Source of the DNA: Bdellovibrio sp.
GTDB lineage: Bacteria; Bdellovibrionota; Bdellovibrionia; Bdellovibrionales; Bdellovibrionaceae
Assembly (NCBI GenBank): GCA_036676395.1
Contig: JAKFCY010000002.1
Span: forward strand, 320,001 to 384,000
Direction: 5' to 3'
DNA length: 64,000 nt
The position numbers were made by a program. Shown piece by piece: positions 21,001 to 27,000 of this stretch. Position 1 is the first letter of the stretch. Each line of letters opens with the position of its first letter.

Positions 21001-24000
21001 ATAAAAGCTGACATTCTCGTCAGATGCCATTTCGAAAGCTTATATTTTCTCAAGCCTCTGGGTTAATCAACCTTGGGGCTAAACGTATTGTTGATGTTAA
21101 GGATAAGCTAGAGCTTCCTGAGCTTCTCAGCGCCTATAATCCTGATATCGACAAAGCCGATATCGATTGGTCGACAAACAAAACTCTTTATAAAAGTTTA
21201 TTTCGCAACAATAAATCTATTCTGTTTAAGTCAGTTTCGTTTCAAGTTGTTGCCAGTTTATTTTCTTTTGCGACGCCGGTTTTAATTCATAATTTCATCT
21301 CAGGTTTGCAAGTCGGCGATTGGTCGCAAGACCATGTCTTGGTATTAATGGCCTATGCGATAGGTTTTGGTTTGTGTGGTGCCGGTAATGGTATTGCGAT
21401 TCAACATTACTTTTTCCACACGCTAAACTTTTTTCAAGTCACAACCAACATTGTGAATAAAAAAATCTTTACGCATGCTTTAAAACTTTCATCGCGTGCA
21501 AAACAAAAATATCAAGTGGGCGATATCGTGAACTTTATGAGTTCAGACACTGATGCCCTTGGTGATGCAGCGATTGTAACGATCGATTTGTCGAATGCGG
21601 TTTTATTATTAGTGGGTTGTTCGGCTTTATTATTTTATTATATCGGCTGGTCAGCGATTGGCGCGGTAGCTGTGATGGCGGTCTTGATTCCGTTAACTCA
21701 GCGTTTAGCTAAAAAATTCGTCCACATGGAAGAAGAAATGATGGCTCAGCGGGATAGCCGCATGACCTTAATGACTCAGATTCTAAATTCAATCCGCGTT
21801 GTGAAGTATTTCTCTTGGGAAAAAAGCGTCCAAGACGAAGTCACCGAAGTTCGTAATAAAGAAATCAGCGCGCGTTTTAAATTAGCCAAATCTGAAATCC
21901 TTTGGGGATTAATCTACGCTTCAATTTCAACAGTGGTGTTGTTTGTCGCTTTAACAATTCATCACTTTCGCGGTCAAACTATTGATTTAGCTTTAGTGCT
22001 GACATGCATTTCTATTTTTTCATTAATGGAAGATCACTTCGGTGGATTATCTCGTTTTATCAGTCGTTTGATGAATGTGTTTGTCAGCGGCCGTCGTATT
22101 ACAGAATTTGTAAAATCAGAAACTGTAGATTCTTTTGCGCCGACTGCAGAAAACCCAGAACTAGCCGGCGAACACGTCGTGGTTAAAGATTTACATTTTG
22201 GTTATGATGTTAAAACGACATTATTTAATAATTTGTCATTCACGTTAAAACAAGGTGAATCATTAGCCATTATCGGCGCCGTAGGTTCAGGCAAATCTAC
22301 GATCTTACAATTATTTTTAAAAGAAATCGCACCCACTTCGGGAATAATTCATTTATCGAATAAATATCGCAGAGCCTATATTCCGCAAGAAGCTTACATT
22401 GTTAATTCTACCCTAAAAGAAAACCTATTTTTTGGTGAAGACCAAGATCAAGCCGTATTAGACCGTGCGATTCAATTATCGTGCTTGCGGGCTGATATCA
22501 ATTTATTACCTAAAGGCACTGATACCGAAATCGGCGAAAAGGGCGTAAATCTATCTGGCGGGCAAAAACAACGCGTAAGTCTTGCGCGCGCCGTGATTGC
22601 AAAGCCTGATGTGATTTTATTAGATGATCCATTGTCTGCCGTTGATCCACACACTGAAAAATTATTGTGTGATCAGCTTATTTTTGGCGAATGGAAAAAT
22701 AAAACTCGCATCATGGCGACTCATCGAATTTCTCAGTTAGAGCGTTTTGATAAAATTTTATTTTTGATCGATGGCCATTACCAGATCGGCACGTATCAAG
22801 AACTTATCGAAAAATCGCCAGAGTTTAAAAAATACTTAGAAATTGAAAAACAAAACCAAAAACACGAAATCGAAATTCAAAAATCAACGCAAGTTACCGA
22901 AGTGTCAGCGCCAAATGCTGATAGCGATGGTCGCATGACGGTAGATGAAGACCGAGAAATCGGTTCGGTTAAAGCTGACATTTATATGACATATATTAAG
23001 TCATTAGGTGGTGATAGCCCTCGTCGTAATATCTTTATTGGCTTATTGTTTTTAGGGGCGATCGTGCATGTGAGTGCACCGATGATGCAAAGAGCGTGGC
23101 TTACGCAAATGAGCGGCAAAGTCGACGCTTTAATGCTGGTGATGGGCTACGGAGCATTTGGATTATTCACGATGTTACTAACATTTATGAATAACTATCA
23201 ATGGACTTACCGCGGGGTTTCAGCTGGAAGACTAATGCATGATAAAATGCTTAAATCGATTTTAAAAAGTCAGATTCGCTTTTTTGATAGCACGCCGATT
23301 GGCCGCATTTTACAGCGTTTCTCGCGTGATGTTGAATCGGTCGATATCCATTTACAGTGGACTTTTGATAATGCGATTCATTCGCTTTTCAATGTGTTGT
23401 CAGCGTTCATTTTAATCGTGATCGCGCTTCCGGTAAGTCTTTTTGTTTTAACCCCGGTGTTTTTTATTTATTATTCGATTCAACATCGCTACCGCCGTGT
23501 CGCCCGCGAAGTAAAACGTTTAGATTCAACAGCCCGCTCACCACGTTACGCTCACTTTAAAGAAACCTTACAGGGTTTAACAGTGATTCGTTCGTTTAAT
23601 TCACAAGAATGGTTCACGAAAGAATTTTTACAAAAATTAAATTTCTCGACTGAAATGTTTTACACCCACTATATGGTGAATCGCTGGTTCTCATCACGCT
23701 TACCATTAATTGGTGCTACCATTTCGATGACAACGGCAATGGCCGTGATTTATGCAAGCTCTAAGGGGTGGTTAACCGCTGGCCTTGCCGGTCTTGTAAC
23801 GTTATATGCTTTAGAATTCTGGCGCCATTTGAATTGGGGAGTAAGAATTTTTTCTGATTTAGAATCACGTATGACTTCAGTTGAACGTTTAGAATTTTAC
23901 ACGAACTTGCCCGCAGAAAAAGATGAAGTGAACTTAATCGACTTTCAAAGAATTCATCCAAAGTGGCCAAGTTCAGGAACTTTAGAATTCAAAAATGTTT

Positions 24001-27000
24001 TTGTGAAATACGCAGATCATTTACCAAACGTTTTAAAAGGCGTTACCTTTACCATTCAATCAGGCGCTCGCGCTGGTGTTGTGGGTCGTACGGGTTCAGG
24101 TAAGTCGACTTTATTTCAAACGGTGTATCGCTTTGTCGGTTATTACAAAGGTGAAATTTTAATTGATGGGCTAGCGATTGATAAAGTTCCACTTGAAATG
24201 CTTCGCCAAAATTTAGCCGTGATCCCACAAGATCCATCGTTATTTATGGGAAGCCTTCGTTCAAACATTGATCGCTATAGCCAGGCAACAGATGTCGATG
24301 TCTGGGCCGTGTTAGACAAAGTGGGCTTAAAACCTTTTGTGCAAACCTTACCAGGGCAGCTGACTCACCATGTGACTGAAAATGGCTCTAATCTTTCACA
24401 AGGGCAGCGTCAGTTGACTTGTTTAGCCAGAGCGCTACTGATGAAAGTAAAAATTATTTTCTTAGATGAAGCTACAGCAAGTGTGGATTTAGAAACCGAT
24501 GCACTTATTCAGCAAGTGATTCGTACTTCATTGGATGGCATTACTCTTGTTACTATTGCCCACAGGCTTTCTACACTTAAAGATTACGATCAGATCATCG
24601 AATTACAAAACGGCCAAGTTGTTAGATCCGGCGCCATCCGTAACACGGATTTGTAAATCATTTATATTTAGAATTATTCGCACAGCCTCTTTGCTTAGGA
24701 ACTTTCCTGAAACCAAACAAAGAGGTGAAAAAATGAAACATAAAACTTGGATCAGTTATTTAGCATTAGCGGTTGTGATGACCGGCTGCCTTAAAGTGCA
24801 AAATAAAAATGAAGTCGCGGCTAAGGCTGCGCCGAAAGCCAAACAACCACTAGTGCAAGCTCAAGCACAAATCACCCGGGCCTTGCGCTTGGATGACGTA
24901 TTTGTCGAGCCAGTGGGTTTGAATCAACCAAATATCTATGATTTAAATTTTTCTTGGCCTCAAACGAAAGACCGTCTTCGTTTAACAGCGAATAGCAAAG
25001 TGTTAACGGTTATTGATACCAAAGAAACTTTTCAGTGGACGATGTCACGTTTGCAAGGTGGGGCAAAATTTGAATTGCTCATCGAAATTCTTGATGGCGA
25101 AGGTCACATTATAACTTCTGAAGTTCGTCAGATTGAAATTCCAAAAGATTATGTGTTTCCGAAATCATTACGTTTAACAAATCATATGAAAATTCAAAAC
25201 CATCGGGTTTTTATGAGTGATTCGGTGATAACGACTGAAAATTTCAATTTAGAAATCCAGTCAAGCCAATTGATTGTTTTAAACAAATCTTACATTCAAA
25301 GTTATGCAAATGAGACGAAAGCTAAAATTGGTTCTGCGGGTCGAAGTGCAGGTTCAATTCGTATCGAAGCCAACGTTGCAGAAGGTGATTTAGATATCAC
25401 CATGAATTCTGAAGCGGGCGGCGATGGCTTAAAAGGTTACGAATCTCCACAGTGTGGTTTTGATGCAGGAATTGGTTGTAACATCGGAAAAATTCATTGC
25501 CCTCAAGGTGGTCTTGGGTATCCTGCGGGCAATAACGGAAATTTATTTGTTAAAATTAAAGATATCGCAAATTTCAAATTATATTCGCAAGAACAATTAA
25601 GTTTAGGCGGTCGCAACGGCCCATCTATGGATGAAAGCACGCCTGCTGATTATCCAGTGGTGACTTCGCAATTTATCAATAAGAACACTTACACTTGCAC
25701 TCCTCGCCAAGGGGCACCACCGCGTGGGACAGATGCGGTTCCAGGAAAAATCTGTTTAATGTTTTCTGGTTCAGTGCCAGAACACGGCTGCGAATAATTA
25801 ATCTAACGGAGCCGGTAATGATTTATCGGCTTTCGCGCCAAGTTCTTTTAGTTTTTCAACTTGTGAGATTAAATTTCCACGGCCTGAATTCATTTTTCCC
25901 ATAATTTCAGTGTGAATTTTTTGAGTCGAATTCAAACGCTCACCCATAGTATCTAAATCTTTTACGATCGCTGCAAATTTGTCATACAACTCGCCACCGC
26001 GTTTAGCGATTTCGAGAGCATTTCTTTGCTGTTTATCCTGTTTCCATAAAGCAGCTACTGTACGAAGTGTTGCTAACAACGTTGTAGGGCTTACGATCGC
26101 TACGTTTTTTGTCCAGGCTTGTTCGAATAATTCTGGTTTTAATTTAAACGCTAATGCAAATGCAGGTTCAAGCGGCATAAATAACATCACAAAATCTGGT
26201 GATACGATTTCGTTAGCTAAGTGATATTTTTTTTCTGATAAACCATTGATATGACGTTTTAAAGATTCAACATGCAGATCAGCGTGTTTCTGACGAATTA
26301 CTTCATCTTCAGCCGAGCTATAGCCTTCGTATGCTGAAAGCGTCACTTTAGAATCGATGATTAAGTGTTTTCCGTCGGGAAGTCTTACGATCACGTCTGG
26401 GCGCAGGATTTCGCCTTCAGAGCCGCGTACGGTTTCTTGCACAAAATACTCTTCACCTTTTCTAAGACCAGAACGCTCTAAAATATTTTCTAAAATCATC
26501 TCGCCCCAATTACCTTGGGTTTTGTTTTCACCTTTAAGGGCGGTCACAAGATTTTGCGCGTCTTTTGACATGGTCGTGTTCAATTCAATCAATTTACCGA
26601 TTTCGCCGCGTAAATGGCCGCGTTCGGCTCTTTCTTGTGAATAAGTATCTTCGACTTTTTTCTCGAAATCTTTAATGCGTTCTTTTAAGGGATCTAACAA
26701 AGTTGATAATTGTTTATGATTTTGATCAGAGAGTTTACCAGATTTATCTTCAAAGATTTTTTGCGCTAAGTTTTCAAATTGCATGGTCATGCGATTTTGC
26801 ATTTCTTGCGTCGTGGTTTTTTGTTGTTCAGTTAATGTCTTTTGTTGTTCAGAAAGGGCTTTTTCAACATCAAACTTATTGCGCCAGATTTCAGCTTGAA
26901 TGCGCATCTTTGAATACACAGCAAAACCGATAATTGCACCACCAGCGATAAATGCAGCTATTGCGATAATGTAGTTCATTTTAACCCCTTACAAGCCTGT

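Follow-up and report, generated by a model that had tools for sequence, protein, structure and literature searches.

The gene considered here lies in a 64,000-nucleotide stretch of Bdellovibrio sp. DNA, the whole of which is referred to as the window. Its product, P0001, resembles the single-chain exporters of the MRP/CFTR (ABCC) type which, to our knowledge, were previously thought to be eukaryotic. This raises the question of whether the protein is a member of this subfamily and how a bacterium came to possess it. The reading that we consider probable is that P0001 is an ABCC-type exporter and a stable gene of its genus, which belongs to a bacterial clade (B1; Bdellovibrionota including Oligoflexia, and Bacteroidota of the Ignavibacteria/Kapabacteria type) standing beside the eukaryotic ABCC proteins.

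P0001 is a single 1210-aa frame with the domain order TMD1-NBD1-TMD2-NBD2 (Table 1). The Pfam models ABC_membrane (E 3.9e-59) and ABC_tran (E 7.9e-55) each matched it in two stretches, and a third membrane domain (TMD0) was absent by both the Pfam search and the AF2 model (pLDDT 85.5, pTM 0.80). In comparisons of this model with known structures, the top 50 matches were all ABCC proteins by both Foldseek (TMq up to 0.89) and VIA-align, and Ycf1, SUR, MRP1, MRP2, MRP4, and CFTR were aligned by the latter with Z values of 36–40 over 1090–1155 residues. A single-chain, domain-swapped exporter fold of 6+6 helices was indicated by Pfam, AF2, Foldseek, and VIA-align. The linker following NBD1 had a pLDDT of <50 at residues 619–633 and no secondary structure at residues 620–650 of the model. 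A phmmer search against the PDB identified 241 distinct sequences at E<=1e-30, and all 60 of the relatives listed were eukaryotic ABCC proteins (MRP1, ABCC2, ABCC3, plant ABCC2/13, YCF1, MRP4, MRP5, SUR1/2, and CFTR), the top match being 8vt4_A (MRP1; E 4.8e-204, 683.5 bits). The scores of P0001 against TIGR00957 (MRP; 760.4 bits, cut-off 1470) and TIGR01271 (CFTR; 454.7 bits, cut-off 1761.2) were below the cut-offs of these NCBIfam models, which are equivalogs and both describe long eukaryotic proteins; TIGR00957 has 1522 positions including TMD0. Apart from these scores, sequence comparisons and the predicted structure support the assignment of P0001 as an ABCC-type single-chain exporter without TMD0.

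Table 1. Coordinates in the window of the pump gene, its predicted parts and its upstream neighbour
Feature	Position	Strand	Basis
fliW, upstream neighbour	20471..21004	+	Pfam FliW E 3.5e-37
Whole gene, 1210-aa ABCC-type ABC exporter (P0001)	21024..24656	+	ORF list, translation; ATG start
N-terminal lasso (L0)-like element preceding TMD1, residues 1–60	21024..21203	+	Model helices, structural alignment, shared columns
TMD1, residues ~62–365, six long helices	21207..22118	+	Pfam ABC_membrane; DSSP helices 64–363 of model
NBD1, residues ~380–612, degenerate catalytic position	22161..22859	+	Motifs
Short disordered linker, residues ~613–650, no long R domain	22860..22973	+	Model
TMD2, residues ~651–960, ABCC pocket residues R887, W888, R892, N937, W938, R941	22974..23903	+	Pfam best stretch 675–929
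NBD2, residues ~985–1205, consensus catalytic site, non-canonical signature	23976..24638	+	Motifs

As judged from the sequence and the model, P0001 carries all of the ABCC hallmarks that were tested, viz. the lasso, the lack of the catalytic Glu in NBD1 together with a shortening of that domain, degeneration of the NBD2 signature and the TM16/17 Arg/Trp residues. The lasso region was modeled as helices at residues 2–6, 9–20, 40–43, and 52–62 (block pLDDT 78–92), and in the ranges aligned by VIA-align residue 1 is paired with MRP1 214, MRP4 17, CFTR 10, and Ycf1 216. Lasso columns including F8, P13, G18, L23, and D27 are common to 28/29 B1 and 24/26 eukaryotic rows and are gaps in 3–5 of the six ABCB/outgroup rows, these three kinds of rows being the ones compared. 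In NBD1, Walker A (K424), Q455, and the signature LSGGQK are present, and the Walker B sequence ILLDD is followed by D535 where the catalytic Glu is expected; the stretch DDPLSAVD is identical in human MRP1. NBD2 contains Walker A K1027, Q1069, the Walker B sequence IIFLDE with E1149, and H1180, and its signature LSQGQR lacks the Gly at the third position. ATP site 1 is therefore degenerate (D535; LSQGQR), with E1149 kept in NBD2. The NBD1 catalytic position is D in 21/21 B1, 5/6 X (a second clade, see below) and 18/18 eukaryotic rows, that of NBD2 is E in all of them, and DD is found at the NBD1 Walker B in 76 of the 80 best representatives.

This degeneracy is not exclusive to ABCC. It is common to 9/9 of the split pairs, which are adjacent heterodimeric half-transporter genes, the nearest unfused relatives of each half, and were found in the source genome, at locus L025, and in 8/8 further Bdellovibrionota loci examined (e.g., G000:C2:1986225-1989361). 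Two of the other hallmarks, the shortened NBD1 and the pocket Arg residues, separate the fused forms from these pairs. In ABCC proteins, NBD1 characteristically has a deletion that shortens the segment from Walker A to the Q-loop compared with that of NBD2. In P0001 this spacing is 31 in NBD1 (K424–Q455) vs. 42 in NBD2; the NBD1 medians are 33 for B1, 29 for X and eukaryotes, and 42 for the first halves of split pairs, whereas the NBD2 spacing is 42 in B1, X, and eukaryotes. The deletion is thus present in P0001, and it is smaller in B1 than in eukaryotes. The residues R887, W888, R892, N937, W938, and R941 align with human MRP1 R1197, W1198, R1202, N1245, W1246, and R1249. R887 is retained in 19/21 B1, 6/6 X, and 14/18 eukaryotic rows vs. 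0/9 split pairs; R887/W888/R892/R941 are retained across B1, X, and eukaryotes, and Arg is absent from the pocket Arg positions in 9/9 split pairs. A table in one published account (PMC10886794) lists R1196, W1245, and R1248 of MRP1 (bovine numbering) and R946, W995, and R998 of MRP4 as TM16/TM17 pocket residues; R887, W938, and R941 align to the residues listed there and are retained in 18–20 of the 21 B1 rows.

The survey's finding described this pump as confined to Bdellovibrionaceae. Our searches indicate a much broader distribution, with fused copies in several Bdellovibrionota families, Oligoflexus, Ignavibacteria, Kapabacteria, and other Bacteroidota MAGs. Within the Bdellovibrionota, a fused copy is present in 58/401 genomes, the source genome included: in 39/54 other genomes of family f1 (g1 13/13; g3 18/27) and in families f2 (2/29), f20 (8/107), f29 (6/8), f22 (1/60), and f16 (1/30). 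Matches at E<=1e-60 were found in 76 genomes, 18 of which had half-size matches only. The named relatives are Oligoflexus tunisiensis, Oligoflexus sp., Ignavibacteria, Ca. Kapabacteria, two Bacteroidota MAGs, and “bacterium HR20,” the Bacteroidota labels being derived from MAGs. A search of 301 sampled Bacillota genomes (E<=1e-100) detected no copy. Relatives of P0001 at E<=1e-30 comprised 25,687 representatives. In a tree containing 141 of the best 150 of these, P0001 and 51 others (1181–1322 aa) formed a 52-row clade, which was separated from 89 eukaryote-type rows with a support of 100. At a 50% identity level, clade B1 includes at least 51 clusters; metagenome proteins without a name make up most of the rows, both in B1 and in the “eukaryote” group. 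The Bacteroidota-labeled clade is placed among Bdellovibrionota lineages, and therefore a transfer between bacterial phyla has probably occurred.

In the trees described here, support is by SH-aLRT only and the searches were fast or short. When an IQ-TREE analysis of 67 full-length rows and 1209 columns was rooted with ABCB, the support was 98 for B1, 99 for the X clade and 88 for eukaryotes plus X. The X clade (P0166, P0184, P0186, P0187, P0239, and the G172 copy) is a second clade of bacterial context, closer to eukaryotes than B1. In a tree of the separate halves, the bacterial N halves branched with the ABCC N halves (100) and the C halves with the ABCC C halves (99), with the source genome's own split pair joining each side; both halves of P0001 fell within the ABCC clades, separate from ABCB and from the remaining half transporters. 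A supermatrix of 54 taxa and 1088 columns, rooted by nine split pairs, supported B1 at 99.1 (LG+F+G4) and 98.7 (PMSF-C20), and the split of pairs plus B1 from eukaryotes plus X at 99.5. A constraint uniting B1 and X was rejected on the supermatrix (AU p=0.0066) but not on the full-length set (p=0.53). Under both the ABCB root and the bacterial split-pair root, B1 branched outside all sampled eukaryotic ABCCs, and its depth and diversity match those of the eukaryotic radiation. Every tree made (ABCB-rooted, halves, and supermatrix) fits the view that B1 would be a large and old bacterial branch beside, not inside, this radiation and sister to eukaryotic ABCC (+X), in agreement with the earlier proposal of a bacterial sister of the subfamily.

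Within its genus, the pump gene is a stable part of the chromosome. The source genome has one copy of it, its GC content (0.38–0.42) is that of its flanks, and the arrangement flg cluster–pump–rmuC–men is retained in 12–15 of 20 related loci, at identities as low as 58%. Due to this synteny and the GC content equal to the flanks, vertical inheritance of the gene is indicated. The fliW gene ends 19 nt before the pump ATG on the same strand. No promoter-like or terminator-like sites were found on the + strand of this gap, and the regional site counts were below the shuffle means. Co-transcription of fliW and the pump is thus inferred; the one RNA run found covered fliW and not the pump.

How the gene arose can be explained in different ways. 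The survey's finding had also put forward that a “short” MRP4-like pump was captured from a eukaryote in ancient times. A late capture of an MRP4/ABCC4-like pump by Bdellovibrionaceae would account for the MRP4-like domain count (no TMD0) and the identity of about 30% to MRP4 structures. However, a constraint uniting B1 with MRP4 costs 119 lnL units on the supermatrix (AU p=0.0057) and one uniting it with MRP4/CFTR costs 89 on the full-length set (p=0.023), so that an MRP4-like capture is rejected at the 5% level; the native GC, the genus-wide synteny and the presence of the clade in at least two phyla likewise make such an event improbable in the extreme. It is also very unlikely that bacteria and eukaryotes arrived at the fusion independently, each from a heterodimeric pair of the same type, their ABCC likeness being parallel rather than inherited. 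Fusions of ABC halves are common, the NBD asymmetry (D in half 1, degenerate signature in half 2) already exists in 9/9 split pairs, and a fused Streptomyces exporter falls outside ABCC. Nevertheless, the TM16/17 Arg (0/9 split pairs) and the shortened NBD1 are derived characters common to the bacterial and eukaryotic fused forms. The lasso motif is also found in both, by comparison with ABCB/outgroup rows, and the split pairs lie outside the clades formed by each half of the fused proteins (C halves 99).

An ancient transfer from eukaryotes, in which the fusion took place in stem eukaryotes and was captured before the extant ABCC paralogues diversified, e.g., by a bacterium that preyed on or was associated with early eukaryotes, and then spread in Bdellovibrionota and Bacteroidota, is possible, but we regard it as rather doubtful. 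Whatever its direction, one inter-domain transfer is required by the topology (split pairs,(B1,(X,eukaryotes))). The patchiness in bacteria (58/401 Bdellovibrionota, 18/27 in one genus, 0/301 Bacillota), the probable inter-phylum transfer of the Bacteroidota-labeled clade and the fact that rooting on the long fungal branch, whereby B1 would be nested within eukaryotes, is only marginally disfavored (AU p=0.073) are consistent with such a transfer. In contrast, the nearest unfused relatives are bacterial split pairs, and two domain-change steps would be required vs. one for a bacterial origin, both of these points being biased by the sampling of split pairs only from Bdellovibrionota. Further, the NBD1 spacing of B1 (median 33) is between those of the split pairs (42) and eukaryotes (29), and B1 equals the eukaryotic radiation in depth and diversity.

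In regard to function, pumping of thiol conjugates had been suggested from the 17 kb proximity of thiol genes. The analysis gave this suggestion no further support: the glutathione/LTC4 contacts K332, H335, and Y440 of human MRP1 correspond to Q74, A77, and V185 in P0001, neither gshB (TIGR01380) nor gshA (PF04262) had a match in the 99.3%-complete source genome, and the pump is separated from the FGE-sulfatase/PLP-decarboxylase genes by flagellar genes. The source genome encodes six GST_N_3 proteins, and therefore prey glutathione may be used. As the TMD1-side contacts of MRP1 are not conserved, the indication of an “organic anion” comes from the TMD2 side only, where the conserved Arg/Trp cluster suggests that the substrate is an amphipathic organic anion. 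By analogy with ABCC structures, P0001 would be an ATP-driven exporter of the inner membrane, with lasso, TMD1, NBD1, a short linker, TMD2, and NBD2 ordered as in MRP4. The substrate would enter from the cytoplasm or inner leaflet into a cavity between two TM bundles, where it may be held partly by R887, R892, R941, W888, and W938 of TMD2; ATP binding would then close the NBD dimer and release it to the periplasmic side. Hydrolysis is predicted to be confined to the consensus site, made up of Walker A/B of NBD2 with E1149 and of the NBD1 signature, and the other site (NBD1 with D535 and the NBD2 signature LSQGQ) would bind ATP without turnover.

Of the known systems, the split pairs, which we take to be of the TM287/288 and TmrAB type (heterodimeric bacterial exporters with one degenerate site), share the NBD asymmetry with P0001 (half 1 has D in place of the catalytic E, and the signature of half 2 is non-canonical; 9/9 pairs). 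They differ from it in consisting of two half-size genes rather than one chain, such a pair being located elsewhere in the source genome, in the absence of Arg at three pocket positions and in an unshortened NBD1 spacing (median 42). The X clade has the same architecture and ABCC hallmarks as P0001, and its genes are uninterrupted and lie in dense prokaryote-like contigs, one adjoining atpA/G/D and parB and one on a 555-kb contig; unlike B1, it groups with eukaryotes (N halves 99) and has their NBD1 spacing of 29. MRP1/ABCC1, which pumps glutathione conjugates and LTC4, is the top PDB sequence match (4.8e-204), its NBD1 stretch LSGGQKQRVSLARAV...DDPLSAVD is near-identical and the equivalents of R1197, W1246, and R1249 are retained, whereas P0001 has neither TMD0 nor the P-pocket contacts K332, H335, and Y440 (Q74, A77, and V185). 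The short eukaryotic exporters MRP4/ABCC4 and MRP5/ABCC5, presumably TC family 3.A.1.208, share with P0001 the lasso-TMD1-NBD1-TMD2-NBD2 order without TMD0, the degeneracy of ATP site 1 and the Arg/Trp pocket residues of TMD2, and their structures (8j3z, 8sx7) match its model with Z values of 36–37 and an rmsd of 2.7–3.3 A over about 1110–1137 residues, at only 28–31% identity. In contrast to these, P0001 branches outside the whole eukaryotic radiation, its linker is of about 40 residues without a regulatory region, less of NBD1 is deleted (spacing of 31–33 in P0001 and B1 vs. 29), and its host is Gram-negative instead of eukaryotic, so that export in the bacterium would be to the periplasm.

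The pump (P0001) is a single-chain exporter, and its ORF in the ORF list and translation reproduced exactly the coordinates, ATG start and length reported in the survey's finding (see table). Pfam recognised ABC_membrane and ABC_tran in two stretches each within the pump, with no candidate for a TMD0. A search of PDB sequences matched 241 distinct chains at E<=1e-30, the best of them human MRP1 (8vt4_A, 4.8e-204), and all 60 of the chains listed were eukaryotic ABCC proteins, in agreement with the survey's finding on its best matches. Of the NCBIfam models, the MRP equivalog ranked at the top with 760 bits versus a cut-off of 1470, and the scores for CFTR and MsbA were 455 and 400. 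An AlphaFold2 model of residues 1-1199, based upon a 65-row alignment, had a mean pLDDT of 85.5 and a pTM of 0.80, its sole disordered stretch (619-633) being located in the linker, and the best 50 Foldseek and best 50 VIA-align PDB matches of this model were all ABCC proteins (TMq up to 0.89, Z 36-40). VIA-align paired residue 1 of the model with residue 214 of MRP1, 216 of Ycf1, 17 of MRP4 and 10 of CFTR, and the N-terminal element aligned in this manner is, in the predicted structure, the lasso (L0). The lasso columns F8, P13, G18, L23, and D27 were common to the bacterial and eukaryotic ABCC rows of a 67-row alignment, with D27 present in 28 of the 29 rows from the bacterial clade of fused exporters that holds the pump (B1) and in 24/26 rows from eukaryotes; these columns were gaps in 3-5 of the six ABCB/outgroup rows.

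The nucleotide-binding domains of the pump are also of this type. In NBD1 the post-Walker B position of the catalytic Glu is occupied by an Asp (D535), NBD2 retains the Glu (E1149) but reads LSQGQ at its signature, the stretch DDPLSAVD is the same as in MRP1, and the spacing from Walker A to the Q-loop is 31 in NBD1 versus 42 in NBD2. The residues R887, W938, and R941, which 18-20 of 21 bacterial rows retain, align to TM16/17 positions through which MRP1 and MRP4 contact their substrates according to a table in PMC10886794; the TMD1-side contacts of MRP1 (K332, H335, and Y440) correspond to Q74, A77, and V185 in the pump. Searches of the ESM Atlas with P0001 and with P0166, a member of a second clade described below, returned only large eukaryotic ABCC clusters and no bacterial taxa. 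By every structural hallmark tested, the pump is a true ABCC-type exporter.

Its GC content is equal to that of its flanks, and it is the sole full-length copy in the genome, which is 99.3% complete. Of 20 related loci, 12-15 retain the order of genes around it, even at a protein identity as low as 58%, and hence the pump is a resident chromosomal gene of this genus. The nearest named records are those of a Bdellovibrio sp. MAG (99%) and Bdellovibrio sp. qaytius (92%), from the family Pseudobdellovibrionaceae. In a Pseudobdellovibrionaceae MAG, an orthologue with 42% identity lies in two frames (739 and 535 aa), so that either the gene is frameshifted or the assembly is in error. The end of fliW is separated from the start of the pump by 19 nt; a site scan of this gap revealed no recognisable promoter or terminator, and around the pump the number of such sites was lower than in shuffled sequences. 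The two genes may be co-transcribed. One soil metatranscriptome contained 6% of the sampled words, and its contigs map only to fliW. As listed, the ORF that overlaps the end of the pump covers its final 122 nt; read from an internal ATG, this ORF has a lipoprotein-like start (MKHKTW...VMTGC), and its homologue is retained in only 6/20 related loci with 46-79% identity. The 671-aa ORF that follows menA resembles by eye an o-succinylbenzoate synthase/acyl-CoA ligase fusion (MenC/MenE).

Features at the pump locus and at two loci elsewhere (positions in the window unless a contig is named)
Feature	Coordinates	Strand	Remarks
'OvoA-type' locus	10-4201	+	
FGE-sulfatase/PLP-dependent decarboxylase fusion	10-3069	+	1019 aa
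Class-V aminotransferase	3062-4201	+	
flgI, flgJ, flgK, flgL, fliW			Upstream of pump
Metatranscriptome match in fliW	20658-21028		
Pump (P0001)	21024-24656	+	ATG start, 1210 aa
ORF overlapping the end of the pump	24535-25797	+	No Pfam family found; variable lipoprotein-like ORF downstream of pump
rmuC		-	Downstream of pump
Menaquinone genes			Downstream of pump
ORF after menA	28217-30232	+	671 aa
Split half-transporter pair	G000:C2:1986225-1989361		Own genome, outside the window; loci L028/L029
Operon-like row with X-type gene	L115:4125-14885		On a 554,896-bp metagenome contig

The fused gene is not confined to the Bdellovibrionaceae, as had been claimed earlier, and it is found in several families of Bdellovibrionota, in Oligoflexus and in records labelled as Bacteroidota. 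Of 401 Bdellovibrionota genomes, 76 contained a match at E<=1e-60; in 18 of these it was of half size only, and the remaining 58, as counted from the search tables, carry the fused full-length form. The latter was present in all 13 other genomes from the genus of the window's genome, and also in the families f2, f20, f29, f22, and f16. A sister genus (g3 of the same family, f1) shows a presence/absence polymorphism, with the fused gene in 18 of 27 genomes; the nine genomes without it are 99-100% complete and carry only a split pair, i.e., adjacent genes for a heterodimeric half-transporter. Since it is absent from 9/27 genomes of one genus, the pump is dispensable in some relatives. The fused gene was found in none of 301 sampled Bacillota genomes.

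An exhaustive search of representative sequences yielded 25,687 proteins at E<=1e-30. In a tree of 141 of the best 150 among them, the window's protein and 51 others of 1181-1322 aa formed a 52-row clade that was separated from an 89-row eukaryote-type clade with a support of 100. A search that started from one high-GC member (P0137) added names from outside the family, namely Oligoflexus tunisiensis (contig of 7.57 Mb), Oligoflexus sp., Ignavibacteria, Ca. Kapabacteria (a synonym under Bacteroidota in the NCBI taxonomy), two Bacteroidota MAGs, and 'bacterium HR20'. In the tree of the bacterial clade, the Bacteroidota-labelled rows formed one group of 14 rows (support 99), adjoining 46 rows of Bdellovibrionia/Bacteriovoracia that were themselves grouped with a support of 100; Oligoflexus was placed elsewhere and several deep branches are nameless.

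A second clade of such exporters (X) comprises P0166, P0184, P0186, P0187, P0239, and a copy from a Bdellovibrionota MAG (G172; 90% complete, 6% contaminated). This last copy lies on a 40.6-kb contig with overlapping ORFs of bacterial type, including those for a solute-binding protein, a histidine kinase, and an ATP-grasp ligase. However, the assignment of this contig to its bin is doubtful because the copy is the only one among 38 genomes of its order (0/3 congeners), and its neighbours have just 36-47% identity to those of congeners. A scan of metagenomes revealed six loci with uninterrupted ORFs of 1248-1265 aa that matched X representatives best, their assignment to X being by blastp (38-70% identity) and not by tree; the ORF cover was 0.90-0.99 for these loci, whereas that of evidently intron-bearing loci was 0.51-0.8. 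One of the X-type loci adjoins atpA, atpG, atpD, and parB, and the AtpD beside the copy at locus L170 has at most 75% identity to any of the 401 Bdellovibrionota genomes. At locus L115 the X-type gene stands in an operon-like row with genes for a ketoacyl synthase, a methyltransferase, a glycosyltransferase, a UbiA prenyltransferase, and an ABC-2 exporter; this arrangement is a hint that the substrate of the clade may be a lipid or a glycolipid. In view of the uninterrupted ORFs and the prokaryote-like neighbours, X is bacterial by context.

The genome that harbours the pump also contains a split pair in which the NBDs are asymmetric in the same manner as in ABCC, with DDPFSAVD and the canonical signature ISGGQK in half 1 and DEATANID and the signature LSQGEK in half 2. 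The same kind of pair was present in all eight further Bdellovibrionota loci fetched and in L025. An Arg was found at the pocket Arg positions in none of nine split pairs, and the NBD1 spacing is 42 in the split pairs, 33 in B1, and 29 in X and eukaryotes. In a tree of the separate halves, each kind of bacterial half branched with its ABCC counterpart (support 100 for the N and 99 for the C halves), and the ABCB halves were outside on the C side, matching what is stated for eukaryotes in Xiong et al. (2015; PMC4649718). One half of the pair from this genome was located in each ABCC superclade, where it is the nearest unfused relative of its ABCC half. A pair of another type, observed in two genomes of family f22 (L078/L079; G376 and G307), combines a half bearing DDALSSVD and LSGGQK with a partner bearing FSMGER, and in the same tree it was outside the ABCC superclades, with ABCB and a Streptomyces fused protein.

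A full-length tree (67 x 1209; IQ-TREE LG+G4, short search), rooted on ABCB and the Streptomyces fused exporter, supported B1 at 98, X at 99, and a clade of eukaryotes and X at 88, and a FastTree analysis of 165 rows agreed with it. In a supermatrix (54 taxa x 1088 columns) for which nine split pairs served as the root, B1 was monophyletic (99.1 by LG+F+G4 and 98.7 by PMSF LG+C20+F+G4), and the split between split pairs plus B1 and eukaryotes plus X had a support of 99.5; X was the neighbour of 16 rows from non-fungal eukaryotes, with a long fungal pair diverging first. Alternative placements were compared by iqtree2 fast searches and AU tests. The survey's finding had offered capture of an MRP4-like pump from a eukaryote as one possibility, and this was rejected on both datasets, as grouping B1 with MRP4 gave p=0.0057 (supermatrix) and grouping it with MRP4/CFTR gave p=0.023 (full-length set). 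Its other option, a bacterial sister, agrees with our trees, in which B1 stands beside the sampled eukaryotic ABCC paralogues and is not derived from them. The bacterial clade to which the pump belongs is both broad and deep, and it is the sister of those eukaryotic paralogues.

A single clade of B1 and X was rejected on the supermatrix (p=0.0066), and on the full-length set it had p=0.53; placing X with the MRP4/CFTR group gave p=0.41 on the latter set. Monophyly of eukaryotes had p=0.34 on the supermatrix and 0.20 on the full-length set, and on the supermatrix p was 0.073 for a root on the fungal branch and 0.33 for one inside B1. Given that the nearest outgroup consists of bacterial split pairs, fewer changes of domain are required if the gene that crossed between domains was bacterial, and on this count we favour such an origin, at somewhat less than even confidence. 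In its full form the proposal, which we advance just as tentatively, is that the eukaryotic ABCC proteins (MRPs, SUR, and CFTR) may go back to a bacterial exporter that by then had both the fusion and the lasso, and whose own precursor was a heterodimeric pair bearing a degenerate site, and not to a fusion in stem eukaryotes. B1 (Bdellovibrionota and Ignavibacteria/Kapabacteria) and X would be the surviving bacterial lineages, X being closer to the donor and B1 retaining an intermediate state of the NBD1 deletion.

By analogy with solved ABCC structures, the pump would work by alternating access, ATP being hydrolysed at one site and bound without hydrolysis at the other, and would possess an anion-binding pocket on the TMD2 side. 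A role in the export of thiol conjugates had been suggested from its vicinity to 'OvoA-type' genes. This link does not stand. Those genes, ~17 kb from the pump, lie beyond the flagellar cluster, and the domain make-up of their locus differs from that of OvoA. The GSH contacts of MRP1 are not retained in the pump. The genome encodes six GST_N_3 proteins, but gshA and gshB had no match in it, the controls of both searches having matched known genomes. The case for transport of glutathione conjugates is therefore weak.

The ABCC proteins (MRP1-5, SUR, and CFTR) are of central medical importance and are treated as a eukaryotic subfamily. In public records the bacterial proteins are annotated as 'multidrug ABC transporter ATP-binding protein' or 'ABC transporter transmembrane domain-containing protein'. 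The literature searched yielded no account of a full-length ABCC protein from bacteria, although a prior mention is possible, e.g., in a survey of B. bacteriovorus transporters; the sole match for 'prokaryotic ABCC' concerned an unrelated subject. According to statements in Xiong et al. (2015; PMC4649718), full-length ABCC originated at or before LECA, proteins of TMD-NBD-TMD-NBD type occur in prokaryotes generally, and at the base of the N- and C-terminal NBD clades of ABCC their account places half-size prokaryotic relatives only. As the split pairs, the intermediate state of B1 and the X clade can now be compared, the origin of ABCC becomes testable. For Bdellovibrio itself, the pump is one further exporter among others. 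The bacterial clade resembles the eukaryotic ABCC proteins in its lasso motif, in the asymmetry of its ATP sites and in its pocket arginines, and a prokaryotic protein that is easily expressed and without TMD0 or R domain is well suited to studies of MRP/CFTR-type mechanics.
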